A stretch of 64,000 nucleotides of DNA from a bacterium (GCA_043779265.1 JAYWEM010000001.1:11554-75553), one strand, 5' to 3'; positions 13,126 through 41,481 are shown, counted from the first letter of the stretch. The notes: a model not told the origin generated them from the letters alone. Translations and numbers: made by a program.

Positions 13126-13148
13126 CAAGGTCAAGTAACATCTCGAAC

Positions 13149-14894: not shown

Positions 14895-15332
14895 CTACGC
14901 CGCCAGGCGCTTGGTCATCGCCAGGGTGTTGCGGCCGGCGGCGGAGCGATACTCCACGTGATCCATGATCGAATGGATCAGATGCAGTCCCATGCCGCCC
15001 TCGGGCAGGTTCGCGGTGTCCGCCGGGTCGAACTCGAATCGCGGCCGCTGCGGCCCGCGATTGGGAGCGCCCGCATCGCACACTTCCACATTCAGTTCGT
15101 CTCCCTGATGCACGAACGACACCATCACCACGTGCCCGGGTTCGAGGCGATAGGCGTGGCGGATCACGTTGTTGATGGCCTCGACCAGCGCCAGTTCGAC
15201 GAGCGCCGAGGCGCGCTGCTCGAGGCCCGCCTCGATGCACAGCGCCTTCAGCGCGCGTGCCGCGAACTGGACCTGGTCGAGCCGACTGTCGAGTCTCAGC
15301 TCGATCCGCCGCGGCCGGGGGGCGTTGCTCAT
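14895..15332 (-). CDS. anti-sigma regulatory factor, RsbW/SpoIIAB-like Ser/Thr kinase (HATPase_c)
   Basis: 'VELALVEAINNVIRHAY...VCDAGAP...GGMGLHLI' are GHKL ATPase motifs in a 145-aa protein. Start ATG overlaps the upstream phosphatase gene's stop (ATGA). Confidence 0.75.
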   Translation of the reverse strand: MSNAPRPRRIELRLDSRLDQVQFAARALKALCIEAGLEQRASALVELALVEAINNVIRHAYRLEPGHVVMVSFVHQGDELNVEVCDAGAPNRGPQRPRFEFDPADTANLPEGGMGLHLIHSIMDHVEYRSAAGRNTLAMTKRLAA

Positions 15333-16504
15333 GCCGCCCTCCGCTCGAGCCCGAGCAGCGTGACGTCGTCGGGGAAGTGGTCGCTCGCGCTCCAGGCGCG
15401 CAGATCGTGCTCGATCGCCGAGACCGTGGCGTCGAGCGAGTGCGAGCAGCCCTCGCGCACGGCCTGCTCGAGCCGATCGATCAGGAACGGCCTGCGCTCG
15501 GCGTTCGGACACTCGGTGACGCCGTCGGAGTAGAGGAACAGCCGATCGCCGGGGGCGAACGGGTGCGTCTCCTCCTCGAACGTGAGTCCCGGCAGCATGC
15601 CGATCGGGAATCCCGATTCGCCGATCCGCTTGAGCTCGCCGCCTCGCGCCAACACCGGCGAGGGATGTCCGCCCTGCGCGATCGTGAGTTGGTCGGTCTC
15701 GGCGTCGATCAGCCCATAGAGGATCGTGAAGTACTTCATCGAGTCGACGTCCGCCTGGAAGCGGTCGTTCAGTTCGGCGAGCACCTGCGCCGGCGGCAAC
15801 GGCAGCATGCGCCCCTTGGCGGTACTTCTCAGCAGCAGGCCCTCGGGCGACAGCATCTTGCTCAGGGAGAACGACAGCATGGCCGAGGAGACGCCGTGGC
15901 CGGCGACATCGAGCAGGTAGAAGGCGGTGAATCGCGCGCCCAGCGCGTGCACGCCGAATACGTCGCCTGCGACCATGTTGGCCGGATGCAATCGCCACGA
16001 GGATCGGACCGCCGGCCACTCCTGTCCTGGAGGGGGTAGCAACGTGCGCTGCAGACTGGCGGCGGCCTCGAGATCGGCGCGCGAGGACTCGAGCGCTTCG
16101 CCGAGACGGCGGCCGCGCTCGGCGAGATCGCTCTCGAGTTTCAGGACGCGCTCGCCGGCTCGCACCCGGGCTCGCAGTTCCTCGGCTTGGAACGGCTTCT
16201 CCATGAAGTCATCGGCGCCGGCATCCATTCCCTCGACCAGCGCGGCGACACCGCTGCGCCCGGTCAACAGCACCACGTACGTGTAGCCCGAGCACTGGCC
16301 GGCGCGGATACGGCGCGTCAGTTCGATGCCGTCGACGCCGGGCATCATCCAGTCGCTGATGACCATCCGGAACGGCTCGCTCTGGTAGAGCGCCCAGGCC
16401 TCCTCGCCGTCTCGCGCGACCACGACCTCGTGACCCCATTGCGTGAGGGTGCGGGTGAGGATGAGCCGGATGACGGATTCATCGTCCGCGACCAGGATGC
16501 GCAC
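15329..16504 (-). CDS. response-regulator receiver fused to PP2C/SpoIIE-type phosphatase (RsbU-like)
   Basis: Receiver 'RILVADDESVIRLIL...ISDWMMPGVDG', then PP2C motifs 'DVAGHGVSSAML' and 'DGVTE'. A GTG start near 16504 is more plausible than the track's extended 16705. Confidence 0.8.
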   Translation of the reverse strand: MRILVADDESVIRLILTRTLTQWGHEVVVARDGEEAWALYQSEPFRMVISDWMMPGVDGIELTRRIRAGQCSGYTYVVLLTGRSGVAALVEGMDAGADDFMEKPFQAEELRARVRAGERVLKLESDLAERGRRLGEALESSRADLEAAASLQRTLLPPPGQEWPAVRSSWRLHPANMVAGDVFGVHALGARFTAFYLLDVAGHGVSSAMLSFSLSKMLSPEGLLLRSTAKGRMLPLPPAQVLAELNDRFQADVDSMKYFTILYGLIDAETDQLTIAQGGHPSPVLARGGELKRIGESGFPIGMLPGLTFEEETHPFAPGDRLFLYSDGVTECPNAERRPFLIDRLEQAVREGCSHSLDATVSAIEHDLRAWSASDHFPDDVTLLGLERRAA

Positions 16505-16643
16505 GCTCGGGCCTCGCTTGCCCAAAGCTGGGCGGCGGGATAGGGATAGGGGGCGCCTCGTGGCCGGTGGGACCGGCCCTCTTCTGATTCTCGGTCGATT
16601 CGGCGCGCGGCTTGAGGCTTCGAGAACCTTGCAGGGAGGGCAC

Positions 16644-18197
16644 TTGGCGGCTGAGACACGGGATTTCACCGAAGCGGACCGGGCCCAACTGGCCGAGCGG
16701 GGCATCTCCGAGCCCGAAGCGGCCCGTCAACTCGGGCTGCTCGCGACTCCGCCGCCCCAGGCGGTACTCGTCCGTCCGTGCACGTTGGGCGATGGCGTAC
16801 GACAGATCGAGCTCGCCGAGCGCGCTGAACTGATCGCCGCCCACGCCGAGGCCGCCTCCGCCGGGCGCATCCGTTCGTTCATCCCCGCATCGGGCGCGGC
16901 CTCGCGCATGTTCAAGGACCTGCTCGCGGCCCAGGCGCTTCCGACGTCGATCACGCCAGCCGAGGTCCGGGCTCTGGCGGCCGAGGGCCGTTCCGATGCC
17001 GCATCGCTCGCGCAACTCGCCGAGTTGCTGCCGCGCTTCGCATTCGCCGAGCGCCTCGCCGAGCAGTTGCGCTCACGTGGACTCGATCCCACGAAGGTGT
17101 CGAGCGATGGGCCGTGGCAGGCACTGCTCTCGGCGTTGCTCGATACCGACGGCCTCGACTACGCGAACGCCCCCAAGGGCCTCCTGCCGTTCCACCGCAA
17201 CCATGGCGTCACGCGCACGGCGTTCGAGGAACATCTGAGAGAGGTGCCCGAAGTCGCGAGCGACAAGGCCGGGCGGGCGCGGATCCACTTCACCGTCTCG
17301 AGCGAGCATCGCGAGCGCTTCGAACGGGCGTTCGCCCGCAGTCGAGGTGCGCTCGACTTCGGCGCCAGTGTCCAGGATGTGAGCTTCTCCGAGCAACTCC
17401 CGGCGACTGACACATTGGCGGGAGCAGTCGGGGGTGGAGCATTCCGCGACGATGCGGGGCGGCTCGTGTTCCGGCCTGCGGGACATGGCGCGCTGCTCGC
17501 CAACCTCCATGCGCTCTCGGCCGACCTCGTGTTCATCAAGAACATCGACAACGTCGCGGTGCAGGCGCTGAGAGGCGAGGGCGTGATCTGGGCCAAGCTC
17601 CTGCTGGGGTTGGTGGCGCGCTATCACGCCCGAGGCGGGGCGCTCGCTGCGAGGCTCCGCGCGGGTGATGCCTCGGCGGCGAGCGACGCGGCAGCGTTCC
17701 TCGCGGAGACCACGGGTGAAGCGCTCCCCTCGGACGCGGACGTGAACGCCTGGTTGCTGGCACGGTTTGCGCGGCCGTGGCGCGTGGCGGGCATGGTGCC
17801 CAATACGGGCGAACCGGGCGGCGGACCCTTCTGGGTGCGCGGCGAGGGCGGCGCCGTGACGGCGCAGATCGTCGAGAGCGCCCAGGTCGACATGGGGAAC
17901 CCGCAGCAAGGGGACAGATTCCGCCACGGCACGCACTTCAATCCCGTGTTCATCGCCTGCGCCCTTCGCGGTACCGACGGACAGAGCGTGACACTCGATC
18001 GCTTCGTCGATGACGCAGCCGTCATCGTGACGCGCAAATCGCATGGCGGTCGCGACCTGCTGGCGCTCGAGCGGCCGGGTCTGTGGAACGGCGCCATGGC
18101 GAGATGGAACACGGTGTTCGTCGAAGTGCCGCTCGCTGTGTTCACGCCGGTCAAGACGGTGTTCGACTTGCTGCGGCCGGAGCATCAGGGCGACTGA
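16644..18197 (+). CDS. DUF4301-family protein
   Basis: 'DFTEADRAQLAERGIS...LVRPCTLGDGV...LLPFHRNHG' recalled as matching the N-terminal pattern of the DUF4301 family. Start is uncertain (TTG at 16644 with an upstream AGGGAGGG); the track ORF begins at 16443. Confidence 0.5.
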   Translation: MAAETRDFTEADRAQLAERGISEPEAARQLGLLATPPPQAVLVRPCTLGDGVRQIELAERAELIAAHAEAASAGRIRSFIPASGAASRMFKDLLAAQALPTSITPAEVRALAAEGRSDAASLAQLAELLPRFAFAERLAEQLRSRGLDPTKVSSDGPWQALLSALLDTDGLDYANAPKGLLPFHRNHGVTRTAFEEHLREVPEVASDKAGRARIHFTVSSEHRERFERAFARSRGALDFGASVQDVSFSEQLPATDTLAGAVGGGAFRDDAGRLVFRPAGHGALLANLHALSADLVFIKNIDNVAVQALRGEGVIWAKLLLGLVARYHARGGALAARLRAGDASAASDAAAFLAETTGEALPSDADVNAWLLARFARPWRVAGMVPNTGEPGGGPFWVRGEGGAVTAQIVESAQVDMGNPQQGDRFRHGTHFNPVFIACALRGTDGQSVTLDRFVDDAAVIVTRKSHGGRDLLALERPGLWNGAMARWNTVFVEVPLAVFTPVKTVFDLLRPEHQGD

Positions 18198-20274: not shown

Positions 20275-22785
20275 TCAGCGGAGTCGCGCGATGCGCGTCG
20301 AGCGCACGCCCGTCTCCGTCACGAGCCTCGCCAGATAGAGGCCCGGCGCGAGCAGGCGGCCATCCGCGCCACGCCCATCCCAGCGCACGAGATGCTCGCC
20401 CGGGGCATGAACGCCGCGGGCGAGTGAGGCGACTTCGCGACCGGCCAGATCATGCACGCTCAGCGAAGCCGCGCCCGCTCGCGCCAGCGAGAAGCGCAGC
20501 GTCGTCTCGCCCGATGCTGGATTCGGCCACGGCGCCGAGAGTCGGAGCGAGCGATCCGACAAGGCGGACGGCGCATCCACCAGCGCGGCGGGGCCCAGCA
20601 CCAGCAGGCCCATCGCGGGCAGCGCGACCTCGATCGACTGATTGAAGCCGTCCCACGAGATCGGTTCGGTCGAGAGCAGTCCTGGGTTCACGGGGCCGGC
20701 TCCCATGTAGGCCGGGGCCTGGCTGTTCACCAACTCGCTCCATCCGCCCGCGATCGGCATGCCGACTCGCACCGTGAGCGGGCTGTTGGCGAACGAGGCG
20801 ATCACCATGACCGACTGGCCGCTGCCATCGAAGCGGCGGAAGGCGATCCAGTTGGCGCCCTCATCGACCCGCGACACGTAGATGCTGCTGGAGGCGCGCA
20901 GCGGCGCGATCGATCGCCGAAGCTGCATCAGCTGCTGGTGATAGGCGAAGATGCCCGCGTAGGTCGTCTTCTTGCCCCAGTCGATGCGGTTGCCGGGATC
21001 CGTGCCGAAGTCAGCGCTCTCGAGCCACTCGTCACCCTGCAGCAGCGCCGGGACGCCGGGAGCGGTGAGCAGGAGTCCGGTCGCGAGCTTCATGCGGCCC
21101 TTGGCGTACTGGTCGTCGTGCGGGGCCGTGGTGTCGATGGTCTTCACCAGCCGCTGTCCGCCACTCGTCGGCCAGGCCTCGTCGTGGAGCTGGAAGTAGT
21201 TGAGCGCCTTGCGCCCGCTGATCGCCGCGCCGCTGCCCAACAGCGCCGAGCGGATCGAGTTCATGTTCGGGTCGCCAAGGCCCGCCGCGAGGATCGCTCC
21301 CCGCACCGCGTCACGGAACTGCATGTGGTACTGCGCATCGAACCCGGCACCGCCGCCCGACGTGGGCGAGGAGGTGGCGGCATTGTTCGGCAACTGCTCC
21401 GCGACGACGAACGCCTCGCCGCGGCGGCGGTCGATCTCATCATTCATCCGCTGCATCAGCGACCAGCCGGCGGCCGACTGCGCGCCGATCGTCATGTACG
21501 ACGTGGCGTCCATGCGGAAGCCGTCCAGCCGGTACTCCTCCAACCACAGCAGCGCACTGTCCGCGAAGTAGTCGCGCACCGCGGCGCGATCGAAGTCCGC
21601 CTGGGCACCCCACGGCGTGTCGATGTGCGGCGTGTCGAAGTACTGTTGCGAGCCGTCGTAGTTCCACAGCCAGTTGCTGTCGACCGTGAAGTGGTTCCAC
21701 ACGATGTCGAGCGTGACCGCGATGCCGTTCGCGTGGAAGCGGTCCACCATGTACTTGAGGTCATCCGGCGTCCCGTACTTCCACTCGGCGGCCCACTGGG
21801 TGATCGGGTTGTAGCCCGCCGAGAGGTCGCCGGGGAACTCGGTGATGGGACACAGCTGCACGCAGTTGATGCCGAGCGCCGCCAACTGGGGGGCGCGATC
21901 GCCCGCCGCCCGGTAGCCGCTCGGATGCGCGACGCCGCCCTGGGGATCGTTGAGGCCCGAGAACGTGCCCAAGTGGAGCTGATAGACGATGAGCGATTCG
22001 GCATCCGGGGTCACGAATGAATCGCTCGTCCACACATAGCGCAGCGGATCCTCGATGTGCGTGTTGCGATCGCTCTGCGCGTTCAGCGAGCGGCCGCGTG
22101 CGTCCATGTTCCACGTCAGGTTGTTGAAGAAGTACTTGTACTCCGAACGATCCGCGACGCCCGCGGCACGCACCACGAAGTGCTCGCCCTGTTTGATCAT
22201 CGGGGTGCCGAGTCCCCACGCGTTGAAAGCGCCTCGGACATGGGCTGTCGTGCTGGTGGGCGCCCAGACCTTGAAGACCGCGCCGCTTCCGCTCACCCGC
22301 GTCGCTCCGACCGGAGCGTGCGACAGCGTCGCGAAGTCGACGACGAAGTCGCTCCCGACCGGCACGCCGTCGGTGACGCCTGCGAACGAGAGGTAGTCGA
22401 GGTCGCCGCCGTCCTGGAGCTCGACGTGATACGTCACGAGTGCGGTCGGCAGCGTCGCCGGCACGTTCGCCGACCAGATGTCGTAGAACCCGCGCGTGCC
22501 CACCTTGGCCGCCTCGATCACCACCGGCGCCCCGGCCACGGTGGCGCGGACCCGGGCCGAGCTCAGGTCATTGCGGTAGGCCTGGAATCGGACCGCGAAG
22601 GATTCGCCATCGACCGGGCAGAGCGGGCGGCGATCGAGACGCTCGATATGCGAGAGCCCATTCCACTCGATGTTCCCGTCATTGCCGGCCGCGTGCGCCG
22701 CCTGCATTCCAGCCGGCAGAAGGGCCAGCCCCGCGATCAGCAGGGGCAGGGCGAGCGAAGCGTCTCGAGCGCGCGGTCGGGGCAT
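20275..22785 (-). CDS. secreted GH13 alpha-amylase-family enzyme with C-terminal sorting-type domain
   Basis: Signal peptide 'MPRPRARDASLALPLLIAGLALLPAGMQAAHA'. GH13 motifs 'VWNHFT', 'GFRMDAT', 'FQLHDE'. C-terminal tail 'LSVHDLAGREVASL...GLYLARLVTETGVRSTRIARLR'. Confidence 0.8.
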   Translation of the reverse strand: MPRPRARDASLALPLLIAGLALLPAGMQAAHAAGNDGNIEWNGLSHIERLDRRPLCPVDGESFAVRFQAYRNDLSSARVRATVAGAPVVIEAAKVGTRGFYDIWSANVPATLPTALVTYHVELQDGGDLDYLSFAGVTDGVPVGSDFVVDFATLSHAPVGATRVSGSGAVFKVWAPTSTTAHVRGAFNAWGLGTPMIKQGEHFVVRAAGVADRSEYKYFFNNLTWNMDARGRSLNAQSDRNTHIEDPLRYVWTSDSFVTPDAESLIVYQLHLGTFSGLNDPQGGVAHPSGYRAAGDRAPQLAALGINCVQLCPITEFPGDLSAGYNPITQWAAEWKYGTPDDLKYMVDRFHANGIAVTLDIVWNHFTVDSNWLWNYDGSQQYFDTPHIDTPWGAQADFDRAAVRDYFADSALLWLEEYRLDGFRMDATSYMTIGAQSAAGWSLMQRMNDEIDRRRGEAFVVAEQLPNNAATSSPTSGGGAGFDAQYHMQFRDAVRGAILAAGLGDPNMNSIRSALLGSGAAISGRKALNYFQLHDEAWPTSGGQRLVKTIDTTAPHDDQYAKGRMKLATGLLLTAPGVPALLQGDEWLESADFGTDPGNRIDWGKKTTYAGIFAYHQQLMQLRRSIAPLRASSSIYVSRVDEGANWIAFRRFDGSGQSVMVIASFANSPLTVRVGMPIAGGWSELVNSQAPAYMGAGPVNPGLLSTEPISWDGFNQSIEVALPAMGLLVLGPAALVDAPSALSDRSLRLSAPWPNPASGETTLRFSLARAGAASLSVHDLAGREVASLARGVHAPGEHLVRWDGRGADGRLLAPGLYLARLVTETGVRSTRIARLR

Positions 22786-22851
22786 GGGCAGGTCCTCAGC
22801 GAAGGTGGATGCAGCCGCGTTGGGGGGGTGAGTCTGACAGAACGACGGAAC

Positions 22852-22873
22852 CCCGGTCCAGAAGGACCGGGGC
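22852..22873 (-). terminator. hairpin downstream of msrB
   Basis: CCCCGGTCC-agaa-GGACCGGGG is a perfect 9-bp stem directly 3' of the msrB stop on the minus strand. Coordinates approximate. Confidence 0.4.
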
Positions 22874-22908
22874 CCGTGTGTGTCCGTTCCACCACTAGAG
22901 GGCCGCAC

Positions 22909-23616: not shown

Positions 23617-24258
23617 TCAGGCGGCGGAGGCCAGGTCGTTGCGACGCACGTAGAGATCCATCTCATCGCGCGTGAATTCCTCCCACAGGCGGCCACTGTC
23701 GTGCAGCTGCACGAACGCATTGACCACATCGGGGAAGAACTGGGTGCCGGCGTGGCGCTTGAGTTCGTCGCATGCGGCACGAGGCGAGAGTCCCCGGCGG
23801 TAGGGGCGGTCCTCGGTCATGGCGTCATAAGCGGCACACGCCATCACGATGCGCGCTCCGACCGGGATGCGATCGGCCGACAGCTTCGAAGGATACCCGG
23901 CGCCATCCGGTCGCTCGTGATGAGCGAGCACGATCTCGGCGGCGACCTCGAGACCCGGGATGTCCTTGAGCATCTCCCAGCCGATCGTCGGGTGGGTCTG
24001 CACCATCGCGCGCTCGGCCGGATCCAAGGCCCTCGGGCGAAGCAGAACGTCGTTGAGGATCGCGTTGCGACCGAGGTCGTGGAGCATGGCACCCAGCTCG
24101 ATGTCGAGCAGCTCATCGCCGGGGACGCCCAACTCGCGCGCCACTCGAACGGAGTACCGCGCCATGCGCAGCGAGCGACCGCGGGTGGTGGACTCGCTGG
24201 CGTCGATGACCGACGTCAGGGCGCGGACGGTGAGCGAGAGGGGTGTGCGCGGGTCCAT
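23617..24258 (-). CDS. HD-GYP domain protein (predicted c-di-GMP phosphodiesterase)
   Basis: 'AMLHDLGR' and 'HHERPDGAGYP'. Start placed at the ATG of 'MDPRTP...'. Confidence 0.75.
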   Translation of the reverse strand: MDPRTPLSLTVRALTSVIDASESTTRGRSLRMARYSVRVARELGVPGDELLDIELGAMLHDLGRNAILNDVLLRPRALDPAERAMVQTHPTIGWEMLKDIPGLEVAAEIVLAHHERPDGAGYPSKLSADRIPVGARIVMACAAYDAMTEDRPYRRGLSPRAACDELKRHAGTQFFPDVVNAFVQLHDSGRLWEEFTRDEMDLYVRRNDLASAA

Positions 24259-24373: not shown

Positions 24374-25663
24374 ATGGAATCACTCAAGCCATTCCGCTCA
24401 AGTGCCGATTTCACCGGCATCATGGCCCAGCCCCAGCCCCCAGATCCCCTGCGTCCGGATCGCCTCTCGCCTCAGGCCGAGGAGGCGGCGGATCACACCA
24501 TCCTCGCGGCGCGTCCCATCTCCGAATGGGTCGACGTGCAGGGGAAGGTGGTGCGCTCGGATGCCCGCATCGCCGAGCTGATGCTGGGACTGGTGAGCGA
24601 GACCTCCGCGGCCCGCACGGACGAGCGTCGGCTGCTCGAGGTCATCGCCGACTTCGCCTTCCGTGCCTTTCCCAATGCGACGCATCATCTGCTGATCGCG
24701 CTCGAGGACGATGCCGTGCTGCGTCCCCTGCTCGCGCGTACGCGAGGTGGTGGGCCGGCGCCGGCCACGATCAGCCGGACGCTCGTCCAGCGCGTGCTGG
24801 CCGATCGCCAGGCGATGCTGGTGGCGCATGGGCAGGGAGCCTTCGATCCGACGCAGAGCATGGTGCTGTCCCAGATGGAGACCGCCATCGCGGCGCCGCT
24901 GCTTGGCAGCCGGCTGCCGCTGGGTGTCATCCAGATGGACATCCGCCGTCCGGGTAAAGGCCGTTTCGGTCGCGAGGACCTGGACCTCCTGTCGGTCTTC
25001 GCCAGCCAGGCCGCGCTGGCGCTGGAACATCTTCGGATGCATCAGCAGCAGCGGCGCGCGTTCCAGAGCACGATCGGTGCGCTGGTGCACTCCCTCACGC
25101 TCAAGGACCCGGATGCGGCGCTCCACAGCGAGCGCGTCCAGGCCGTCGCCGTCGCGATCGGACAGCACCTCGGACTGACCGGGGACTCACTGCAGATCCT
25201 CTCGGTGGCCGCGCTGTTGCACGATCTCGGCAAGCAGGGTGTCCGCGATGAGGTGCTGTTCAAGGCGGGCCGGCTCACCGAGAACGAGCGCGCCGAGATG
25301 GATCATCACGCCGCTTACACGCAGACCATCCTCGACAAGATCGAGTACCCCGAGGAGCTTCGCGATGTGCCGCGGATCGCCGCCTACCATCACGAGAAGC
25401 TCGACGGCACCGGTCCCTTCGGGGTGGCGGGCGAGGACATCCCGATGGCGGCGCGCATCATCTCCGTCGCCGATGTGTTCGACGCGCTGATCTCGCCTCG
25501 CGTCTACAAGCAGCCGCTCGCTCCGGCCGCGGTGCTCGACGTGCTCGAGCGCGGACGCGACGTGGACTGGGACGGCAGCATCATCGATGCCCTGCGCAGC
25601 GTCGTGCTGAACGTGCTCGAGGAGACGTACGGCATGGACGAGGACGGGCAGCTGGCCGCCTGA
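24374..25663 (+). CDS. GAF–HD-GYP domain protein
   Basis: N-terminal GAF-like region, then 'LLHDLGK' and 'YHHEKLDGTGPFG' (HD-GYP). Divergent from the neighbouring HD-GYP gene across a ~115-bp spacer. Confidence 0.75.
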   Translation: MESLKPFRSSADFTGIMAQPQPPDPLRPDRLSPQAEEAADHTILAARPISEWVDVQGKVVRSDARIAELMLGLVSETSAARTDERRLLEVIADFAFRAFPNATHHLLIALEDDAVLRPLLARTRGGGPAPATISRTLVQRVLADRQAMLVAHGQGAFDPTQSMVLSQMETAIAAPLLGSRLPLGVIQMDIRRPGKGRFGREDLDLLSVFASQAALALEHLRMHQQQRRAFQSTIGALVHSLTLKDPDAALHSERVQAVAVAIGQHLGLTGDSLQILSVAALLHDLGKQGVRDEVLFKAGRLTENERAEMDHHAAYTQTILDKIEYPEELRDVPRIAAYHHEKLDGTGPFGVAGEDIPMAARIISVADVFDALISPRVYKQPLAPAAVLDVLERGRDVDWDGSIIDALRSVVLNVLEETYGMDEDGQLAA

Positions 25664-25716: not shown

Positions 25717-26790
25717 TCAGGCGGCCTGTTCGGTCCCGTTGATGTGACGCTCGAACCGGGTCCGATCGACGGAGTGCTCGTAGGCTTCCTCGCCGGTGAT
25801 CAACTCACGGCGGACCATGTCCTCGAGCTGCGCGTCGAGCGACTGCATGCCGACGCGGCCACCCGCCTGGATCGCGGACGGCAGCTTGTGCGTGTTGCCC
25901 TGGCGGATCATGGCGCTGACCGCGGTCGTGTTGACCAGCACCTCGGCCGCCACCATCCGGCCCGTCTGGTCGGTCTTGCGCACGAGCTGCTGCGCCACGA
26001 CGAGTCGCAGCGAATCGGACAGCATGGTGCGGATCTGATCCTGCCGACGGGGCGGGAACACGTTGATGATGCGGTCCACCGATCGCACGGCGCCGTTGGT
26101 GTGCAGCGTGCCGAGCACGAAAATGCCGGTCTCGGCGGCGGTGAGCGCCAGGCTCATCGTCTCGAGATCGCGCATCTCACCCACGAGGATGACATCGGGG
26201 TCTTCGCGAACGGAGGCGCGCAGCGCCTCGGCGAAACTCGGGGCGTCGCGACCGATCTCGCGCTGCGTGATCACCGACTGCTGGAACTCGTGCACGTACT
26301 CGATCGGGTCCTCGATCGTGAGGATGTGGCCACGACGCGTGCGGTTGAGATGGTCGATCATGCCGGCGAGTGTGGTCGACTTGCCGGATCCGGTCGGGCC
26401 GGTCACCAGCACGAGGCCCTTGCCGACGGCCAGGACCTGCTGCACGACCGCGGGCAACCCGAGCGTCTCGAGCGGCGGGACCTGGCTCGAGATCCGGCGC
26501 ATCGCCGCAGCGATGCCGCCGGTATGCAGGTAGACATTGACGCGGAAGCGTCCGGCGGTCTCGCACTCGTAGGCGAAGTCGACCGCGCATCGCTCGTCCA
26601 ACTGTCGGCGATGATCGTCGGTCATGAACTCGTTGAGGAAATCGCGGACGTCCTGCTCGGAGAGCTCGCGGAACCGCACGGGCTGGAGATTGCCGTGGAT
26701 GCGGATGCGCGGCGCCTGTCCCGAGACCAAGTGGAGGTCGGAGCCGCCTTGATTCACCGCGAGCTCGAGGAATGCGTCGATCCGGTTCAT
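25717..26790 (-). CDS. pilT: type IV pilus retraction ATPase PilT
   Basis: 'GLVLVTGPTGSGKSTT' (Walker A), 'ILVGEMRD', 'GTLHTN'; PilT/PilU family, 357 aa. Confidence 0.9.
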   Translation of the reverse strand: MNRIDAFLELAVNQGGSDLHLVSGQAPRIRIHGNLQPVRFRELSEQDVRDFLNEFMTDDHRRQLDERCAVDFAYECETAGRFRVNVYLHTGGIAAAMRRISSQVPPLETLGLPAVVQQVLAVGKGLVLVTGPTGSGKSTTLAGMIDHLNRTRRGHILTIEDPIEYVHEFQQSVITQREIGRDAPSFAEALRASVREDPDVILVGEMRDLETMSLALTAAETGIFVLGTLHTNGAVRSVDRIINVFPPRRQDQIRTMLSDSLRLVVAQQLVRKTDQTGRMVAAEVLVNTTAVSAMIRQGNTHKLPSAIQAGGRVGMQSLDAQLEDMVRRELITGEEAYEHSVDRTRFERHINGTEQAA

Positions 26791-27890
26791 GCCGCGGACC
26801 TCGAATCGCCGGTCATCATCGCGAGGAGTTCGGGTCGCGTGACATAGGCGGCGAAGCCCCACTTCTCCTCGGCCTTGAGGAACGCCTCATCCGGATCGAT
26901 CTCGCCGGCCCGCACGAGTGCGAGCAGCGACTGGTCCATGAGCTGCATGCCGAGGCGCTTGCCCATCGTGATCGAGCCCGGGATCTGGAACGTCTTGCCG
27001 TCGCGGATCAACTGCTGCACCGCCGGCGTCACGACCAGGATCTCGACCGCGGCGCGGCGGCCACGACCGTCGGCGGCCCGGATGAGCTCCTGACTGACGA
27101 CCGCCTTCAAGTTGTCCGCGAGCGAATGGCGAACCTGCGCCTGATTGTCGCTTGGATGCGCATCGACGATGCGATCGATGGTCTGGGCCGCGCCCCGGGT
27201 GTGGAGTGTGCCGAGTACCAAGTGGCCCGTCTCAGCGGCTTCGAGCGCCAGTGTCACGGTGTCGGCGTCGCGAAGCTCGCCGACCAGGATGACGTCGGGG
27301 TCCTGACGAAGTGCGGAGCGCAGACCTTCGCGGAAGCTCGGGACATGCGTGCCGAGCTCGCGCTGGACGACTTGCGCCTTGGCGCCCTTGTGCACGAACT
27401 CGACCGGGTCCTCGAGCGTCACGATGGTGAGCATGGAGGTGCGGTTGATCTCGCCGATCATCGCCGCGAGCGTCGTCGACTTGCCCGTTCCGGTGGAGCC
27501 GGTGACGAGCACGAGTCCCGATCGCAGCCGCGTGAATTGCTGGATCACTTTGGGCAAACTGAGATCCGCCAGGTCGGGAGTCCGATCGGGGACCGCGCGG
27601 CAGATCGCGCTCAGCCCGCGGCTATGGCGAACGACGTTGACGCGGAATCGACCGACTCCGGGAGCGGTGTACGCCAGGTCCACCGAGCCGCGCTCCTTCA
27701 GCTGGAGTTCGAGGTTCTCGTCGAGGAGCTCGCGCACGAAGCCCTCGGTCTCCTCCATCGAGAGTGCGCGGTACTTGACCGGCGTCAGCTCGCCATCGAG
27801 ACGCACGAGCGGCGGCAGTCCGACCACGAAATGGATATCGGAACCGCCTTGCTGCTTGCCGATCTCGAGGAACGCGTCGATGCGGGCCAT
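26787..27890 (-). CDS. pilU: PilT/PilU-family ATPase paralog
   Basis: 'GLVLVTGSTGTGKSTT', 'ILVGELRD', 'GTLHTRG'. Its stop overlaps the pilT start (ATGA). The gene name is assigned by position only. Confidence 0.8.
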   Translation of the reverse strand: MARIDAFLEIGKQQGGSDIHFVVGLPPLVRLDGELTPVKYRALSMEETEGFVRELLDENLELQLKERGSVDLAYTAPGVGRFRVNVVRHSRGLSAICRAVPDRTPDLADLSLPKVIQQFTRLRSGLVLVTGSTGTGKSTTLAAMIGEINRTSMLTIVTLEDPVEFVHKGAKAQVVQRELGTHVPSFREGLRSALRQDPDVILVGELRDADTVTLALEAAETGHLVLGTLHTRGAAQTIDRIVDAHPSDNQAQVRHSLADNLKAVVSQELIRAADGRGRRAAVEILVVTPAVQQLIRDGKTFQIPGSITMGKRLGMQLMDQSLLALVRAGEIDPDEAFLKAEEKWGFAAYVTRPELLAMMTGDSRSAA

Positions 27891-27903
27891 GGGTTCTCGT
27901 CCC

Positions 27904-30237
27904 CTAGCCCGAGTGCCGAAGCATCTCGAGCATCGCAGCGGCCGTCTGGGGACGGTCGTCCGCGAAGCGCGACATGGAACGCATGACGATCTCGTTGACC
28001 CCGGCCGGGATGCCAGCGGCGACCTGGTCGAGCGCCGGGACATCGGCCTCGAGGTGCTGGAACAGCACGTTCACGGCGTTCGCGCCGGCGAATGGCTGCT
28101 TCCCCGACAACATCTCGTAGAGCACGATTCCGAGCGAGTAGAGATCCGAACGCGCATCGATCTCGTGGCCGGTGATCTGCTCGGGTGAGATGTACTCGGG
28201 CGTGCCCACCAGGATGCCGCTCTGGGTCAGGCGCGAGCGCGAACTCTGCGAGACGGCTGCGAGGCCGAAGTCGACGATCTTGGCCGTGTCGAGCTTGTCG
28301 ATGAGCAGGTTGGCGGGCTTGATGTCGCGATGGATGATCCCCAGCGCGTGCGCCGCGGTCAGTCCCTCGAGCACCTGGTCGGCGATGTGCAGCACGCGCG
28401 CCACCGGCATGGGCCCGTCCTGCCGCAGTGCGGTGCCCAGATCGCGTCCATCGAAGTGCTCCATCGAGATCGCGTGCGCGCCGCGCAGATCGAGCAGGTC
28501 GTGGATGCGGATGACGTTGGAGTGCGTGATGCGCCGCGTCAGTTTCAGTTCCTGCACGAAGCGCTTGATCATCGCCTCGTCCATCGACAGCTGCGGGCTG
28601 AGGATCTTGAGCACCAGTTCCTCGCGCACCACGGTGTCCTCGACGAGGTACACGGTTCCGAATCCACCGCCGCCGATCCGCTGCAGCACTCGGAAGCGCT
28701 CGATGAGCACGGTACCCGGCTCGAGGCGCTGGAAGTGGAGCGTGCGATGCGAATCCTGATGGACGCCTTCGACACCGGCGCTCGGTGTTCCGCGCTTGGA
28801 GCCCGAGTCGGATCGACCGGTGTCCGGCCCGTAACTGCCGCGGACTTCCAGCGGCATCGGGTTGCTGCCACTGCCCCCGGCACCGGCCTCCCGCAGCGTG
28901 TCGAGCAGCGTGGTGCGCTCGCTGTCCGGCAGTTCCATCTTCGACATGCTCGACAGCGCGTGCAGCGCCTCGCGTCGGATCTCGCTGCTATCGGATCGCG
29001 CCAGCTGGCAGATGGGCTCGACCGCGCGGACGTCCGCGAGCTTCGCCAGGGCACGGATGCAGAGCGGAATGGCGCGCGTGTCACGGTGCAGCAGGTGGAG
29101 CAGTGGCTCGACGGCACGGTTGTCGCCCGTCTTGGCCAGAGCGTCGATGGCGCGCTCGCGCACCCACCAGTCGGGATCTTGGAGCGCGTCGATCAGCGCC
29201 GGGACCGCGCGCTTGTCCGGCACGGTGTTGAGGATCTCGACGGCGTAGCGCCGAACGAAATCATCGCCGTCGCGCACCAGCCCGATCACGGCCTCCACGA
29301 CGCGCGTGCCGCCCAGGGTGCCCAGGGCATCGGCGGCGCGAACGCGCACCCACCAGTCCTGGTCGCGCAGGGCCGAGACGAGGTCCTTGATGGCATCGAC
29401 GGTGACGACCTGATTGAGCACCTCGACCGCGCTGCGGCGCACGTATTCCGAGTCATCCTTCAGGGCATCGAGCAGGTGGGGCACGGCGTTGACGTCGCCG
29501 ACCGCGATCAACGTCTCGATGCTGGCGTTCTGCACCTTCATGTCGGAGTCACGCAGCATGCCACACAGGGCCGGGACGGCTGACGTGGCCTTGAGCTGCC
29601 CGAGCGCCTTGACCGCCTCGAGCCGCACCGCCGCCGTGGGGTCGGTGAGTCGTCCCGTCAGCGCCTGGATCGACTCGGGCGTGTCGAATCGGCCGAGCAG
29701 CCGCGAGAGATGCAGCCGCAGCCACCAGTCGTCGTTCGAGAGATAGGCTGCGGCATCGCGAACGATGGTGGCGTCGGCGCTGCGCTCGATCAAGCGGAAG
29801 ACGCTGCCACGGGCATCCTTCGTCAGCTCGGGCAGGAGGCGGAGCAGCGTGGACGTCTGCACGCGCGGCAGCTGCTCCTGAAGAACCGCTTCGAGACGCG
29901 CCTTGCTGACGCGCGAATCGGCGAACAGCGGCAGCAGCTCCGTCGGCTCGTAGTGCTCACCCGCTGCGAGGGCGCGGGTCGCGGCCTCGGCGACCGGAGC
30001 GCTCTGGGAGCGTAGCGCCTCGACGTAGTGCGACAGCGTCTCCTTCGTCAGCAGCCGGCCGAGGACGAACTGCAGCGAGTCCAAGCTGGCACCACCCTGA
30101 GCCGCGTCGAACAGCGACTTGATCGCGGATCCGCCCAGCGTCAACAGGTGCTCCTCCGCCGCTCGCGCCTCCGACTCATCCGTCGAGGCGAGGCGGCGAA
30201 CGAGGTGTCCGGCCTGGAAGCGCTTGAGGAGGTCCAT
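27904..30237 (-). CDS. Ser/Thr protein kinase with N-terminal HEAT (PBS-lyase-like) repeat array
   Basis: About 10 HEAT-like repeats ('DPDWWVRERAIDALAKTGD...'). C-terminal Hanks kinase: 'GGGGFGTVYL', 'VLK', 'HRDIKPANLL', 'DFGLA', 'GTPEYISPE'. Confidence 0.8.
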   Translation of the reverse strand: MDLLKRFQAGHLVRRLASTDESEARAAEEHLLTLGGSAIKSLFDAAQGGASLDSLQFVLGRLLTKETLSHYVEALRSQSAPVAEAATRALAAGEHYEPTELLPLFADSRVSKARLEAVLQEQLPRVQTSTLLRLLPELTKDARGSVFRLIERSADATIVRDAAAYLSNDDWWLRLHLSRLLGRFDTPESIQALTGRLTDPTAAVRLEAVKALGQLKATSAVPALCGMLRDSDMKVQNASIETLIAVGDVNAVPHLLDALKDDSEYVRRSAVEVLNQVVTVDAIKDLVSALRDQDWWVRVRAADALGTLGGTRVVEAVIGLVRDGDDFVRRYAVEILNTVPDKRAVPALIDALQDPDWWVRERAIDALAKTGDNRAVEPLLHLLHRDTRAIPLCIRALAKLADVRAVEPICQLARSDSSEIRREALHALSSMSKMELPDSERTTLLDTLREAGAGGSGSNPMPLEVRGSYGPDTGRSDSGSKRGTPSAGVEGVHQDSHRTLHFQRLEPGTVLIERFRVLQRIGGGGFGTVYLVEDTVVREELVLKILSPQLSMDEAMIKRFVQELKLTRRITHSNVIRIHDLLDLRGAHAISMEHFDGRDLGTALRQDGPMPVARVLHIADQVLEGLTAAHALGIIHRDIKPANLLIDKLDTAKIVDFGLAAVSQSSRSRLTQSGILVGTPEYISPEQITGHEIDARSDLYSLGIVLYEMLSGKQPFAGANAVNVLFQHLEADVPALDQVAAGIPAGVNEIVMRSMSRFADDRPQTAAAMLEMLRHSG

Positions 30238-30267
30238 CGAGTGGTCATCCCCTCCCTGGGGGTCGGC

Positions 30268-30900
30268 TCAGCGGGGAAGCAGCAGGTACATGGCTCCAGC
30301 GCCCAGTAAGGCGCCGAGCAGGAAGGTCACGACCAACGTGGAAGTCGAGCTCGACGCGGACGGCGCCGCCGATGTCGAGACCGAACCCGAACCCGAACCC
30401 ATGGCCGATGTTGCGGTGGGAGCCTGAGCCGTCGAGGCGATCGGCAGCGGCGGGGGTGGGGAGCTCTCCTTCTCGCGCTGCGTCTCGAGCAGATGCCCGA
30501 GCTCGGTGCGCGACAGGATGACCGTGTGCTGCTCGGCGTCCGACGGGCGGCGCGCATCCGCGGCCAGTGTCCGGCGATCGATCTCATAGCCGACCCACAG
30601 CGTGTACTTGCCGAAACGGACCACGTCGTTGTTGCGGACCACGGCCGTGTTGACCGCCTGGTCGTTCACGAACGTGCCGTTGGCGCTGCCCAGATCGACG
30701 ACCTGGTAGTCGCCATTGGACGTGCGCTCCATGCGGAAGTGGTCACGCGAGATGCCGGGATTGTCGACGAACACGTCGGCCGCGGGATCGCGTCCCACGC
30801 TGACGACCTGCTTGTCGAACGTGAAGTTGCGCACGGGGCGCCCCATCAGGGACAGGCGCAACTTGAGGAGCTGGGGTTCGGACATGGCGTCCTCCGACAC
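30268..30900 (-). CDS. FHA-domain protein with C-terminal membrane anchor
   Basis: FHA core 'VSVGRDPAADVFVDNPGISRDHFRM...GSANGTFVN'. Ser/Thr/Ala-rich linker, then a C-terminal TM helix. Start may be the ATG at 30885. Confidence 0.75.
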   Translation of the reverse strand: MSEDAMSEPQLLKLRLSLMGRPVRNFTFDKQVVSVGRDPAADVFVDNPGISRDHFRMERTSNGDYQVVDLGSANGTFVNDQAVNTAVVRNNDVVRFGKYTLWVGYEIDRRTLAADARRPSDAEQHTVILSRTELGHLLETQREKESSPPPPLPIASTAQAPTATSAMGSGSGSVSTSAAPSASSSTSTLVVTFLLGALLGAGAMYLLLPR

Positions 30901-36624: not shown

Positions 36625-37059
36625 ATGAACATGCTGACCTGGACACTCCTTCTCTGTGGAGCGCTCGGCTCCGACCAGGGAGCGCAGCCGATGCCGCTGC
36701 AGCCAGCGCCCGCCGGCGCGCGTTGCGTCGTGGGCGCTCGCCCGCTCGCCTGGAGCCCATACACGAGCCGAACGGAGTCGGGTATGACGATCGACCTCGA
36801 TCCCGAGGCACGCGTCGCCTCGCCCGAGCGCGCATCCAGCCTGTACTCGCAGCAGGAGTTCGAATCGCTCGGCGACCTTCGCTCCGATGTGATGGCCGAC
36901 GGCTCGCTTCGTCTGGTGCTGGGCGACCGACTCCAGAGCTACAGCGTGCTGCGCGTGGATGGTGCCGGGAAGTTGCGTCTCGACTGCGCTCACAGCGAAC
37001 ACGAGGCCGATCGGATGAGCCGCACCCCGGCACCGGCACGTGCGAGGGAGGACCGATGA
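36625..37059 (+). CDS. small secreted hypothetical protein upstream of and coupled to the metalloprotease
   Basis: Signal peptide 'MNMLTWTLLLCGALGS'. Its stop overlaps the protease ATG (ATGA). No family recognised. Confidence 0.35.
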   Translation: MNMLTWTLLLCGALGSDQGAQPMPLQPAPAGARCVVGARPLAWSPYTSRTESGMTIDLDPEARVASPERASSLYSQQEFESLGDLRSDVMADGSLRLVLGDRLQSYSVLRVDGAGKLRLDCAHSEHEADRMSRTPAPARAREDR

Positions 37060-38723
37060 GAGCGCGGCATCTTCTCGCGAGCTTGTCGATAACGGCGCTC
37101 ACGATGGGCCCGGTCGCCTTCTCGCAAGCGGCCACCATCGTCATCATCAACAATGACGGTGCCGGAGAGGGGTTCAACGATCCGACGCCTGTTGCACCCA
37201 TCGGCGGCAATTCCGGGACCACGCTGGGGCAGCAGCGGCTCAATCTGTTCAACCATGCGGCGAGCCTGTGGGGCGCCATGCTCGACAGTCCGGTCACGAT
37301 CCAGGTGCGGGCGCAGATGAATCCACAGACCTGCACGCCGACCAGTGCCGTACTCGGGAGCGCGGGGCCGGTCACGGTCCACGCCAGCTTCCCAGGCGCG
37401 ATCGTCACCGGGGCCTGGTACCACCAGGCGCTCGCGAACAAGCTCACGGGATCGGACCTGGATGGTGTGAATCCCGACATCAACACGACGTTCAACTCGG
37501 ATGTCGACAACCCCACGTGCCTGGGGACCCGCAACTGGTATTACGGGTTCGATCACAACGAGGGCATCCACATCGACTTCCTGCCCGTGTTGATGCACGA
37601 GCTGGGACACGGTCTCGGCTTCAGCACGACGACCAGCAGCTCGACGGGCAACTTCATCTCCGGACTGCCCGCGATCTGGGACCATTACCTGATGGACAAG
37701 ACCTCGGGACTGTTGTGGAAGGACATGTCCGCGGTGCAGCGCCAGGCCTCCGCGATCAACACCGGCAACCTGGTGTGGACGGGGCCGGCGGTGCGCTTCA
37801 AGGCCCCGCTCGTGCTCGTACGTGCGGCGCAGTTGTCGGTGTCCGCACCGGGCGGGATCGCCGGAACCTATGAGGCCGGGCTCGCCAGCTTCGGTGCGGC
37901 GCTGACCGACGCGGGGCTTTCGGGTCAGGTCGTGCTCGTGGACGATGGCTTGGTGCCGACCGGCGAGGGCTGCGAGTCGCCGTTCGTCAATGCCGGTGCC
38001 GTCGCCGGCAACATCGCGCTGATCGACCGCGGCACGTGCGCTTTCACGCTCAAGGTGCTCAATGCCCAGAATGCTGGCGCGATCGGTGTGATCATCGCCA
38101 ACAACACGTCGGGCGCTGCAGCGCCGACGGGTACCGACCCCGCGATCACGATCCCCGTGCTCGGCATCTCGCAGGCCGACGGCAACCTGCTCAAGGCGAA
38201 TCTCGGCGCCGGCGTGCAGGCCACGCTGCGGCTCCACCCGAGCCAGCGTGCGGGAACGCACCCGGATGGTGAGATGCGCATGTTCTCGCCCAACCCGGTG
38301 CAGAGCGGCTCGAGTGTGTCGCACTTCGATGTGACCTCGACACCGAACCTGCTCATGGAGCCCTCGATCAACGCCGATCTGACGGCCGCGATCGACCTGA
38401 CCCGCGAGCTGTTCGAGGACATCGGCTGGTATCCGGCCACGACGGGTGTGCCCACGACGGCACCGGGCACGATCGCGCTGGCGGCGGGCCCCAACCCGGC
38501 CGGCCGCGACGTCACGGTCCGATTCGCACTCGATCGCGATGCGACCGTGGAGGTCAGCGTGCTGGACGTGGCGGGGCGCGAGGTCGCGAAGTTGCACCGC
38601 GGTCGCCTCGGTGCCGGCCCGCATGTGATGGCGTGGGATGCGCGGGTCGCCCCCGGCGTCTACCGCGTCCGCCTGCGTGCGGATCGGGCGGTCAGCACGC
38701 GCAGCATCGTCCGAGTCGACTGA
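37056..38723 (+). CDS. secreted zinc metalloprotease with PA domain and C-terminal sorting-type domain
   Basis: Signal peptide. 'HELGHGLGF' (HExxH). PA domain ('IALIDRGTCAFTLKVLNAQNAGAIGVIIANN'). C-terminal tail 'VSVLDVAGREVAKL...GVYRVRLRA...RSIVRVD'. Confidence 0.75.
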   Translation: MRARHLLASLSITALTMGPVAFSQAATIVIINNDGAGEGFNDPTPVAPIGGNSGTTLGQQRLNLFNHAASLWGAMLDSPVTIQVRAQMNPQTCTPTSAVLGSAGPVTVHASFPGAIVTGAWYHQALANKLTGSDLDGVNPDINTTFNSDVDNPTCLGTRNWYYGFDHNEGIHIDFLPVLMHELGHGLGFSTTTSSSTGNFISGLPAIWDHYLMDKTSGLLWKDMSAVQRQASAINTGNLVWTGPAVRFKAPLVLVRAAQLSVSAPGGIAGTYEAGLASFGAALTDAGLSGQVVLVDDGLVPTGEGCESPFVNAGAVAGNIALIDRGTCAFTLKVLNAQNAGAIGVIIANNTSGAAAPTGTDPAITIPVLGISQADGNLLKANLGAGVQATLRLHPSQRAGTHPDGEMRMFSPNPVQSGSSVSHFDVTSTPNLLMEPSINADLTAAIDLTRELFEDIGWYPATTGVPTTAPGTIALAAGPNPAGRDVTVRFALDRDATVEVSVLDVAGREVAKLHRGRLGAGPHVMAWDARVAPGVYRVRLRADRAVSTRSIVRVD

Positions 38724-40665: not shown

Positions 40666-41481
40666 CTAGAAAAGCCGGAGAACGGACTGCTGCGCCTGCG
40701 ATGAGAGCTGCAGAGCGACGACGCCAAGCTGCTGACGCGTCTGCAGGGCGAGCATGTTCGCACCCTCTTCGTTCGAGTCCGCCGCCGTGAGCATGTCCGC
40801 GCCCTCGGTCAGCGTGTTGATCATCTCGGTGGTGAACTCCTGACGCGTGGTCACGACGCCGTTGCTGGACGACAGCGTCTTGGCCTGTGTACGGAGCTCG
40901 GTCAGTGCGGCGTCGAGGTCCGAGACGGCACCGTCGACATCCGCGTCCGCAGCCCAGGAGTTGGCAGCTGCGTCGATCGCCAGATCGCCGGCGACCGTGG
41001 CATCGAAGCCCGAGATCGTCAGCGCCGAGGATCCGTCCTCGTTGAACTCCACCGTCAGGTCGTCGCCGTCCAGGAAGTTCGTGCCCTTGTAGCCGGAGTC
41101 GGTCGCAAGGTTGTCGATCTGGGTGCGCAGCGCGTCGAACTGGGTCGCGAGCGTCGCACGGTCGGCAGTCGACGCCGAACGGGCGGAAGCTGCGAGACCC
41201 TTCATCTGCTCGACGATCTTGGTGATCGCCTCGATACCCTTGAGCGACGCCTTCACCGTCTGGATCGCCTCACCCATCGTGTCCTTGCGGGCCGCGAGGT
41301 CCTGGGCACGGTTGGTGTGGTTCTGGGCGGCGAAGTAGGCCGCCGCGTCATCGACGGCGGAGTTGACGCGCTTGCCGGTGGCCAGACGCGTCGTCGTGCG
41401 GCCCTGCAGGGCTGCCGTCATCTGCAGCTGGATCAGGTTGCCACGCATTCCGCCCGACAGGTTGATGTCATTGATCGCCAT
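40666..41481 (-). CDS. flagellin (271 aa, alphaproteobacterial-type short flagellin)
   Basis: N-terminal 'MAINDINLSGGMRGNLIQLQ...LATGKRVNSAVDDAAAY' and C-terminal 'LALQTRQQLGVVALQLSSQAQQSVLRLF' are the conserved flagellin D0/D1 segments. Confidence 0.9.
   Translation of the reverse strand: MAINDINLSGGMRGNLIQLQMTAALQGRTTTRLATGKRVNSAVDDAAAYFAAQNHTNRAQDLAARKDTMGEAIQTVKASLKGIEAITKIVEQMKGLAASARSASTADRATLATQFDALRTQIDNLATDSGYKGTNFLDGDDLTVEFNEDGSSALTISGFDATVAGDLAIDAAANSWAADADVDGAVSDLDAALTELRTQAKTLSSSNGVVTTRQEFTTEMINTLTEGADMLTAADSNEEGANMLALQTRQQLGVVALQLSSQAQQSVLRLF

Follow-up and report, generated by a model that had tools for sequence, protein, structure and literature searches.

A HEAT-repeat Ser/Thr kinase gene kept together with two PilT-like ATPase genes in Candidatus Eisenbacteria and Gammaproteobacteria: a candidate phosphothreonine switch for a motor pair

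The subject of this analysis is a 64,000-nucleotide (nt) stretch of an Eisenbacteria contig (GCA_043779265.1, JAYWEM010000001.1:11554-75553), referred to below as the window, and within it a run of minus-strand genes encoding an FHA protein, a HEAT-repeat Hanks-type Ser/Thr kinase and two PilT-family ATPases, with two HD-type genes on the downstream side. The G+C content of the window is approximately 68%, which produces many spurious open reading frames (ORFs); genes were therefore chosen by third-position G+C. The two ATPases are named A and B here, after the two PilT-family paralogue clades that they represent. The features of the locus are as follows, with positions counted from the first nucleotide of the window and residues given in amino acids (aa).

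30268-30885, minus strand: FHA protein, 205 aa; ATG start at 30885 with GGAGGA upstream, identical to the start of the public gene call
27904-30237, minus strand: HEAT-repeat Hanks-type Ser/Thr kinase, 777 aa (Pfam HEAT_2 and Pkinase)
28888-30237, minus strand: HEAT solenoid of the kinase, aa 1-450 (Pfam, AlphaFold2)
aa 454-498 of the kinase: disordered linker (AlphaFold2)
27907-28710, minus strand: kinase domain, aa 510-777 (Pfam, AlphaFold2)
28225-28227, minus strand: codon of T671 in the kinase activation loop
26787-27890, minus strand: PilT-family ATPase of clade A, 367 aa (TIGR01420, 414 bits)
26838-26840, minus strand: codon of T351 in the C-terminal tail of A
25717-26790, minus strand: PilT-family ATPase of clade B, 357 aa (TIGR01420, 446 bits)
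26122-26124, minus strand: codon of I223, the first His-box position of B
24374-25663, plus strand, convergent with the operon: GAF and HD-GYP-like protein, 429 aa (Pfam GAF_3 and HD_5)
23617-24258, minus strand: stand-alone HD-GYP protein, 213 aa (Pfam HD_5, E=9e-31)

The ORFs and the sequence agreed with four tightly packed minus-strand genes, as described in an earlier sequence-only reading: the FHA and kinase genes are separated by 30 nt and the kinase and A genes by 13 nt, while A and B share a 4-nt ATGA start/stop overlap. The longest ORF of the FHA gene begins at GTG 30900, as opposed to the ATG start at 30885 used here. Pfam searches and a C-terminal hydrophobic segment likewise supported the description of the first two products as an FHA protein with a membrane anchor and a kinase with an N-terminal HEAT array.

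The conservation of this arrangement was examined in two directions. In the forward direction, the window proteins were compared by tblastn with fetched loci, and only non-self loci with 2.4 kb or more of sequence downstream of the kinase were counted, 72 in all; these span Candidatus Eisenbacteria, Gammaproteobacteria such as Ectothiorhodospira, and one Acidobacteriota-labelled contig. Both ATPases were found in 71 of the 72 loci, comprising 69 full-length pairs and two loci with fragmented matches (L044 and L048). The A-type gene always came first and the B-type gene second, with median spacers of approximately 1 nt between kinase and A and 5 nt between A and B. The order was also kept in the distant members L084 and L085, where kinase identity was 33-35%. 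In the reverse direction, metagenome contigs were scanned with a degenerate DNA probe directed at a C-terminal motif of A. Checked beforehand on the fetched loci, the probe matched 63 of them once each, in every case where the A gene ends (3'), and gave no off-target matches; in the metagenomes, 109 of 120 matching stretches lay in A-type genes. A kinase homologue preceded A in 57 of the 58 metagenome A genes with at least 500 nt of upstream sequence (the exception being L161), and a B-type gene followed in all 92 with at least 500 nt downstream.

The forward and reverse linkage thus makes the kinase, A and B essentially inseparable, and the three very probably constitute one functional module. 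The kinase-A-B order is kept across at least two phyla, so the loss of gene order in relatives that the sequence-only reading had considered was not observed. The FHA gene, which that reading had included in a fixed four-gene order, is found upstream only in Eisenbacteria-type loci and L085 and is absent from three-gene versions. The real unit is therefore a three-gene core with lineage-specific FHA, PP2C, HD-GYP and small-protein accessories.

The kinase belongs to a large family. More than 120 full-length relatives with 53-86% identity were recovered, and the named ones were assigned to Candidatus Eisenbacteria except for two metagenome-assembled genome (MAG) entries labelled Methylomirabilota and Verrucomicrobiae. 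Scanning one genome per species with the kinase alignment retrieved at least 588 relatives. The best 80 of these loci were examined, and approximately 27 originated from Eisenbacteria or Krumholzibacteriia and approximately 50 from Gammaproteobacteria, whose kinases gave full-length matches at 36-41% identity. Cultured gammaproteobacterial carriers included Ectothiorhodospira haloalkaliphila, E. shaposhnikovii, E. mobilis and Lentisalinibacter orientalis, and MAG carriers were assigned to Thioalkalivibrio, Thiohalophilus and Woeseiaceae. Among 1.8 billion cluster representatives searched, full-length members were found at identities as low as approximately 31%, and Acidihalobacter and an Acidobacteriota-labelled MAG were among them. 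Public labels of the family were limited to ‘HEAT repeat domain-containing protein’, ‘protein kinase domain-containing protein’, ‘non-specific serine/threonine protein kinase’ and ‘hypothetical protein’. The arrangement of N-terminal HEAT repeats and C-terminal kinase domain, which had been called atypical from the window alone, is thus not an oddity: it is shared by a large, uncharacterised orthologous family.

Within the window kinase, Pfam detected HEAT_2 in five stretches (E=4e-53) and Pkinase at aa 516-727 (E=1e-47). The AlphaFold2 model (mean predicted local distance difference test score of 83) showed a 28-helix solenoid, a disordered linker, a normal kinase fold and a flexible activation loop. 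The Hanks-type motifs were kept in 77 orthologues, namely the G-loop GGGGFGTV, K544, the HRD motif (636-638), the DFG motif (656-658) and TPEYISPE, and the activation-loop residue T671 (‘SRLTQSG’) was identical in 77 of 77; the kinase therefore looks active, judging from its motifs. It is not a PASTA kinase of the PknB/Stk1 type, as the corresponding model (NF033483) scored 289 bits against a cut-off of 450 and matched only the kinase domain; Pfam detected no PASTA domain in the protein, and the AlphaFold2 model contained no transmembrane-like segment. Among the same 77 orthologues, HEAT repeats at aa 255-370 were nearly invariant across phyla, and the linker at aa 441-510 was not conserved. 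The HEAT part matches alphaRep-type repeats, a class of protein binders, and the near-invariance of aa 255-370 includes positions that are variable in such repeats. Conservation of these normally variable positions across phyla suggests a conserved binding partner, for which A and B would be the obvious candidates.

Both ATPases matched Pfam T2SSE (E=5e-43 and 3e-47 for A and B, respectively) and clearly exceeded the cut-off of 319 bits of the PilT/PilU model TIGR01420 in NCBIfam, with profile positions 2-340 of 343 aligned. The models of secretion and assembly ATPases were missed by wide distances, including GspE (135-144 bits; cut-offs 617-630) and PilB (124-130 bits; cut-off 676), and both proteins also fell far below the cut-offs for DotB (159-164 bits; cut-off 463) and TraJ (146-160 bits; cut-off 368). 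An identification as GspE-like or PilB-like ATPases was rejected on these scores, and the GspE-like identity that the sequence-only reading had allowed for did not materialise. The same reading had named the pair PilU followed by PilT. The scores support the assignment to the PilT family, but not the name PilU: by phmmer against the PDB, A scored 303 bits with its best match, Pseudomonas aeruginosa PilT (PaPilT; 3jvu), and 255 bits with PilU (9n32), and B scored 328 and 265 bits, respectively. A canonical pilT-pilU pair met by chance in locus L142 provided a further comparison, in which the PilU-like second gene product was 41% identical to A and 35% identical to B. Both results led us to reject the ‘PilU then PilT’ naming.

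Across phyla, A-type sequences were 52% identical to one another and B-type sequences 51%, compared with 45-47% between A and B even inside one genome; identity of A and B to PaPilT was 46-51%. Neighbour-joining trees in which four PilT-like sequences and one PilU-like sequence served as references placed A and B in clades separate from the canonical PilT references, with bootstrap values of 99 and 84, respectively, and a sister grouping of the two was weakly supported (bootstrap 60). These comparisons indicate that A and B are distinct, old, co-inherited paralogues.

The Walker A lysine, Asp-box glutamate, Walker B glutamate and second histidine were kept in both A (69 sequences) and B (70 sequences), and both enzymes look active in this respect. 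The first His-box histidine, corresponding to PaPilT H222, was retained in 69 of 69 A-type sequences and replaced in 70 of 70 B-type sequences, by isoleucine in 60, valine in 7 and threonine, alanine or methionine in 3. The PaPilT H222A mutant retracts approximately 3 times more slowly and shows reduced twitching (bioRxiv 10.1101/2020.02.12.946426; PMC10187167), which makes a slow or regulatory motor a plausible role for B. Clade A has signatures of its own. Its Walker A motif takes the variant form G-x-T-G-T-G-K-S (GSTGTGKST in the window), and A carries a C-terminal extension of the form F..(F/Y)-V-(T/S)-x-P-(D/E)-L-L, which reads YVT351RPELL in the window; the tail threonine or serine was present in 64 of 69 A-type sequences. 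The tail is of the TxxD/E type, which some FHA domains prefer. A C-terminal tail is also found in two-motor systems, where that of PilU contacts PilT (bioRxiv 10.1101/2025.10.30.685630). The motif ‘IDPDEAY.KA.DK’, used as the probe for A-type genes, also occurs in canonical pilT-pilU-like pairs (L142, 3837-6141; L196, 3182-5109) and is thus older than clade A; just the F..FVTxPxLL tail that follows it is specific to A.

The accessories differ between lineages. The window FHA protein matched PF00498 (E=4e-18; 66 bits, cut-off 20.7), with the FHA domain at approximately aa 25-101 followed by a low-complexity linker. Its single C-terminal hydrophobic segment (aa 180-204) holds a transmembrane helix at aa 184-203 with only one or two residues behind it, which points to a tail-anchored protein, and such a segment was present in 24 of 24 FHA proteins extracted from Eisenbacteria-type loci. 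Their genes lie directly upstream of the kinase gene in every case except L022. Predicted phosphothreonine-binding residues (GR, aa 31-32; SRDH, aa 46-49; NGT, aa 69-71) were kept in 23 orthologues, as was T121 in ‘HTVxL’. The FHA genes of many Gammaproteobacteria are located downstream and belong to another FHA family. These partners are approximately 220-230 aa in length and lie downstream of B (L032, L033, L040, L043, L071 and L075), often as two tandem paralogues, and their C-terminal half (…NG..L….D.I.IAGFEVEF…) resembles a further FHA domain in degenerate form.

Both of the downstream genes described earlier as HD-GYP cyclic di-GMP (c-di-GMP) phosphodiesterases are present; the nearer one converges on the operon from the opposite strand and its GYP motif, HHEKLDGTGPFG, is degenerate, and only the second is canonical. 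The latter protein contains the motif HHERPDGAGYP and is predicted to be a c-di-GMP phosphodiesterase. The position and orientation of the GAF-HD gene were kept in most Eisenbacteria-type loci, and at least one HD-type gene was found in 11 of the 12 such loci with long flanks. A PP2C gene follows the HD-GYP gene in the deeper-branching Eisenbacteria-type loci L017, L021, L024, L025 and L028, and L022 encodes an FHA-GAF-HD fusion. The fullest gammaproteobacterial version, L071, encodes, in this order, a PP2C, a 686-aa FHA-GAF-HD_5 fusion, a small protein of approximately 160 aa, the kinase, A, B and two soluble FHA proteins. In this fusion the FHA domain stands N-terminal to the counterpart of the window GAF-HD protein. 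The fusion of FHA to the GAF-HD-GYP enzyme argues directly for placing phosphothreonine reading and c-di-GMP hydrolysis in the same pathway as the kinase. The small protein (approximately 158 aa; weak DUF6812 match; motifs IPKKLK..V.LWVHP.GR..G, FYN, MDGS..GT and VNKAY) is encoded upstream of the kinase in most Gammaproteobacteria (L071, 7225-7722; L041, 7440-7916) and downstream of B in the two distant members (L084, 12038-12514; L085, 6118-6591), and no homologue was detected in the window or in Eisenbacteria-type loci.

A response-regulator/SpoIIE (PP2C-type) phosphatase is encoded elsewhere in the window (15329-16705, minus strand), approximately 9 kb from the module, and a similar SpoIIE-type gene lies less than 8 kb from the module in L001 (20229-21362, minus strand). 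This protein may supply the phosphatase that the module lacks in this lineage, or it may be a partner-switching component with no relation to the module.

From the gene content, motifs, synteny and domain fusions of the module we infer, with moderate confidence, a phosphothreonine switch combined with c-di-GMP hydrolysis that controls the PilT-like pair, with pilus retraction as output. The HEAT solenoid would hold the A/B ATPase assembly, and the kinase would autophosphorylate on the invariant T671 and phosphorylate a threonine of the motor, the best candidate being T351 in the TxxD/E tail of A. FHA partners would then read the phosphothreonine: the tail-anchored inner-membrane FHA protein of the window could draw the phosphorylated motor or the kinase complex to the membrane, and the gammaproteobacterial readers would be the soluble double-FHA proteins and the FHA-GAF-HD-GYP enzyme. 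Where encoded, PP2C would reset the switch, and the HD-GYP enzymes would tie it to local c-di-GMP hydrolysis and lower the c-di-GMP level locally. The auxiliary motor pair would in turn control type IV pilus retraction in a PilT/PilU-like manner, with A running at full speed and B acting as its slow or regulatory partner. The claim that phospho-Ser/Thr signalling is wired to retraction motors, put forward in the sequence-only reading, is thus partly supported: gene order ties the kinase to PilT-family ATPases far more strongly than the window alone could show, and type IV pilus retraction is probably the target of the motor pair.

Several observations weigh against this interpretation. As noted from the sequence earlier, no other pilus genes lie nearby: PilB, PilC, PilM-Q and pilins were not found in the 64-kb window. 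A prepilin motif scan returned no match in the window, in the first 86 loci or in 1.94 Mb of fetched loci, and the surroundings of the 206 fetched loci showed no further gene for a PilB-like ATPase. The literature search found no experiment or paper linking these proteins to pili. The proposed phospho-acceptor sites are guesses from conservation. Two loci break the core: L069 (Thiotrichales MAG, 8001-14388) has a full-length kinase gene followed by rpsF, DUF2232 and dnaB, with the ATPases absent, and L161 (soil metagenome contig, 1-2475) has A and B preceded by 1.4 kb of sequence without a kinase. The two phyla have FHA proteins that are not orthologous to each other. Moreover, approximately one-fourth of the gammaproteobacterial loci consist of the core only, without FHA, PP2C or HD-GYP genes within 8 kb; the Ectothiorhodospira genomes also belong to this type, and core-only loci, with or without the small protein, are flanked by unrelated housekeeping genes. 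The phosphothreonine-reading step is thus not universal. Regarding the missing pilus neighbours, canonical pilT-pilU operons are themselves typically unlinked to other pil genes, as in P. aeruginosa, and the absence is therefore weak evidence against a role in pili.

The same absence is the starting point of the best-surviving alternative, in which the twin ATPases have been repurposed away from pili and form, together with the HEAT-repeat kinase, a self-contained, phosphorylation-gated hexameric ATPase device, whose output might be, for example, c-di-GMP turnover control, an envelope machine of another kind or a flagellar/sessile switch. The module was never found beside pilus genes in the 206 loci, and the nearest motility genes in the window are flagellar (38.8-64 kb). 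The separation of A and B from the canonical PilT references, the non-canonical Walker A motif and private C-terminal tail of A, and the lack in B of a His-box residue needed for full motor speed would all fit such a device, and non-pilus machines that use PilT-family ATPases are established, for example DotB. However, A and B pass the PilT/PilU model over its full length at 46-51% identity to P. aeruginosa PilT, the module lacks a gene for another membrane platform, relatives do not share the flagellar neighbourhood, and the isolation from pilus genes is shared by canonical pilT-pilU. We regard this alternative as tentative and rather unlikely. Also doubtful is a free-standing non-pilus machine in which the HEAT solenoid would clamp a mixed or stacked A/B hexamer, phosphothreonine would gate the ATPase cycle, and the state would be passed on as a c-di-GMP signal via the FHA-tagged HD-GYP enzyme; if it were true, PilT-family motors would have been recruited as signalling devices.

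A horizontally spread anti-phage defence or other conflict system in a variable island is highly improbable. The kinase domain matches the PD-T4-6, MAD6 and PglW kinase models of PADLOC, flanking genes vary between genomes, the spread across phyla is patchy, and helicase and AAA genes lie upstream in L084. However, the PADLOC matches cover the generic kinase domain only, while the FHA protein, A, B and the HD-GYP proteins gave no meaningful matches, and a defence system was rejected on this basis. Most of the neighbours have housekeeping functions (GlnE, MetRS, ribonucleotide reductase and rpsF), the GAF, HD-GYP, PP2C and FHA accessories are typical of signalling and not of effectors, nuclease, toxin and methylase genes are absent, and the locus shows no GC anomaly in the window. 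Finally, tandem PilT-family genes are common and canonical pilT-pilU pairs were met by chance in L142 and L196, but an ordinary pair lying incidentally beside an unrelated kinase and FHA gene is, for practical purposes, excluded by linkage in 71/72 forward and 57/58 reverse cases across phyla and down to 33% kinase identity, by spacers that overlap or approach zero, by the lack of a PilU-like member and by the clade-specific signatures of A and B.

The favoured interpretation, a phosphothreonine switch acting on pilus retraction, can be compared with several known systems. The PilT/PilU pair of P. aeruginosa, Vibrio cholerae and Myxococcus xanthus resembles A and B in its two tandem, co-transcribed genes for PilT-family ATPases of approximately 360 aa, in passing TIGR01420 with both proteins, in retaining all core NTPase motifs, and in having one partner with a C-terminal extension (PilU there, A here). 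In contrast, neither A nor B is a PilU orthologue, the partner with the extension (A) is encoded first, the first His-box histidine is missing from all B-type sequences, and a HEAT-repeat Hanks kinase obligately precedes the pair, a situation not reported for pilT/pilU loci in the searched literature. The threonine phosphorylation pathway of type VI secretion systems (T6SS; PpkA/PppA/Fha1-TagH) similarly encodes a Hanks kinase, a PP2C and an FHA protein together with the machine that they presumably control post-translationally, and in its Fha-TssL interaction an FHA protein reportedly docks on a phosphothreonine of a machine component. Unlike PpkA, which spans the membrane, the kinase described here is cytoplasmic with a HEAT sensor or scaffold; moreover, the presumed target is a PilT-like ATPase pair, and HD-GYP enzymes are included. 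No T6SS genes were found in the window or in annotated loci, and the window FHA protein is not of the TagH type (TIGR03354, 32 bits; cut-off 120). The closest functional analogue is T6SS PpkA/PppA/Fha1 and the closest structural analogue of the output is PilT/PilU, while the locus is a member of neither.

More distant parallels also exist. The archaellum of Sulfolobus, a type IV filament, is regulated by an FHA protein and Ser/Thr Hanks kinases (ArnA/ArnB/ArnC/ArnD); unlike the present module, this archaeal system acts mainly on archaellum gene expression and is not known to have PilT-like retraction ATPases. HD-GYP phosphodiesterases are functionally tied to PilT/PilU and pilus motility through the Xanthomonas RpfG-GGDEF-PilZ complex, and c-di-GMP controls pilus motors more generally. 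In contrast to that system, the HD-GYP genes of the module are syntenic with the ATPase genes and fused to FHA in Gammaproteobacteria, and neither a PilZ nor a GGDEF partner is encoded in the module. Tandem non-canonical PilT paralogues conserved in Myxococcales are represented by MXAN_6705 and MXAN_6706 of M. xanthus, where deletion of MXAN_6706 causes a partial S-motility defect (PMC13584747). Their neighbour MXAN_6704 is a GNAT acetyltransferase (PMC4048283) and not a HEAT-repeat kinase, and MXAN_6705 has a long disordered N-terminus that is absent in A and B. The literature search yielded no description of a Hanks kinase or FHA link to PilT-family ATPases. The parts are familiar, and it is their tightly conserved kinase-A-B combination that was not previously described in the searched literature.

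What flips a type IV pilus from extension to retraction, and why many bacteria keep extra PilT paralogues, are unsettled questions. The module offers a concrete and testable answer for a large group of environmental bacteria, among them Eisenbacteria of soil and sediment, Gammaproteobacteria that oxidise sulfur or are phototrophic, and apparently some Acidobacteriota: a dedicated motor pair under a eukaryote-like kinase/phosphatase/FHA switch tied to c-di-GMP breakdown. If correct, this would extend the threonine-phosphorylation logic of the T6SS to the PilT motor family, provide a naturally occurring case of a ‘slow’ motor with a variant His box, and assign a function to a large family now annotated just as ‘HEAT repeat domain-containing protein’. 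Cultured carriers, such as E. haloalkaliphila, E. shaposhnikovii, E. mobilis, Acidihalobacter and L. orientalis, make genetics and biochemistry feasible.

Scans for regulatory elements added little. A promoter consensus scan of the locus returned no promoter-like site, and the terminator scan returned a single terminator-like site, within the kinase gene but on the other strand, a yield not above chance expectation; the scan is therefore uninformative. A regulatory RNA or riboswitch at the locus was rejected, as a tRNA-Gly (GCC) at 3146-3222 (plus strand) was the sole Rfam match in the window at the gathering threshold.

The rest of the window encodes carbohydrate enzymes, the SpoIIE phosphatase mentioned above, several secreted proteins and a flagellar cluster at 38796-64000, approximately 8 kb from the module. 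The cluster comprises a response regulator, FlaF, FlbT (just beyond FlaF), a sigma-54 activator, rod proteins, FliE/F/G/H/I/J, FlgD, FlgE, FliM, FliO/P, FliR, FlhB and FlhA, together with three tandem flagellin genes at 40666-44040 (minus strand). The FlbT/FlaF pair is best known for controlling flagellin translation in Alphaproteobacteria, and its presence in an Eisenbacteria contig is notable. A flagellar linkage of the module was rejected, as this neighbourhood was not found in any relative compared. Three unrelated large proteins in the window share a C-terminal FlgD_ig domain, namely a 1545-aa Big_9/PD40 protein (8737-13374, minus strand), an alpha-amylase with CBM48 (20275-22908, minus strand) and a PA-domain protein (37056-38723, plus strand), and this common end looks like a C-terminal sorting or anchoring tag.

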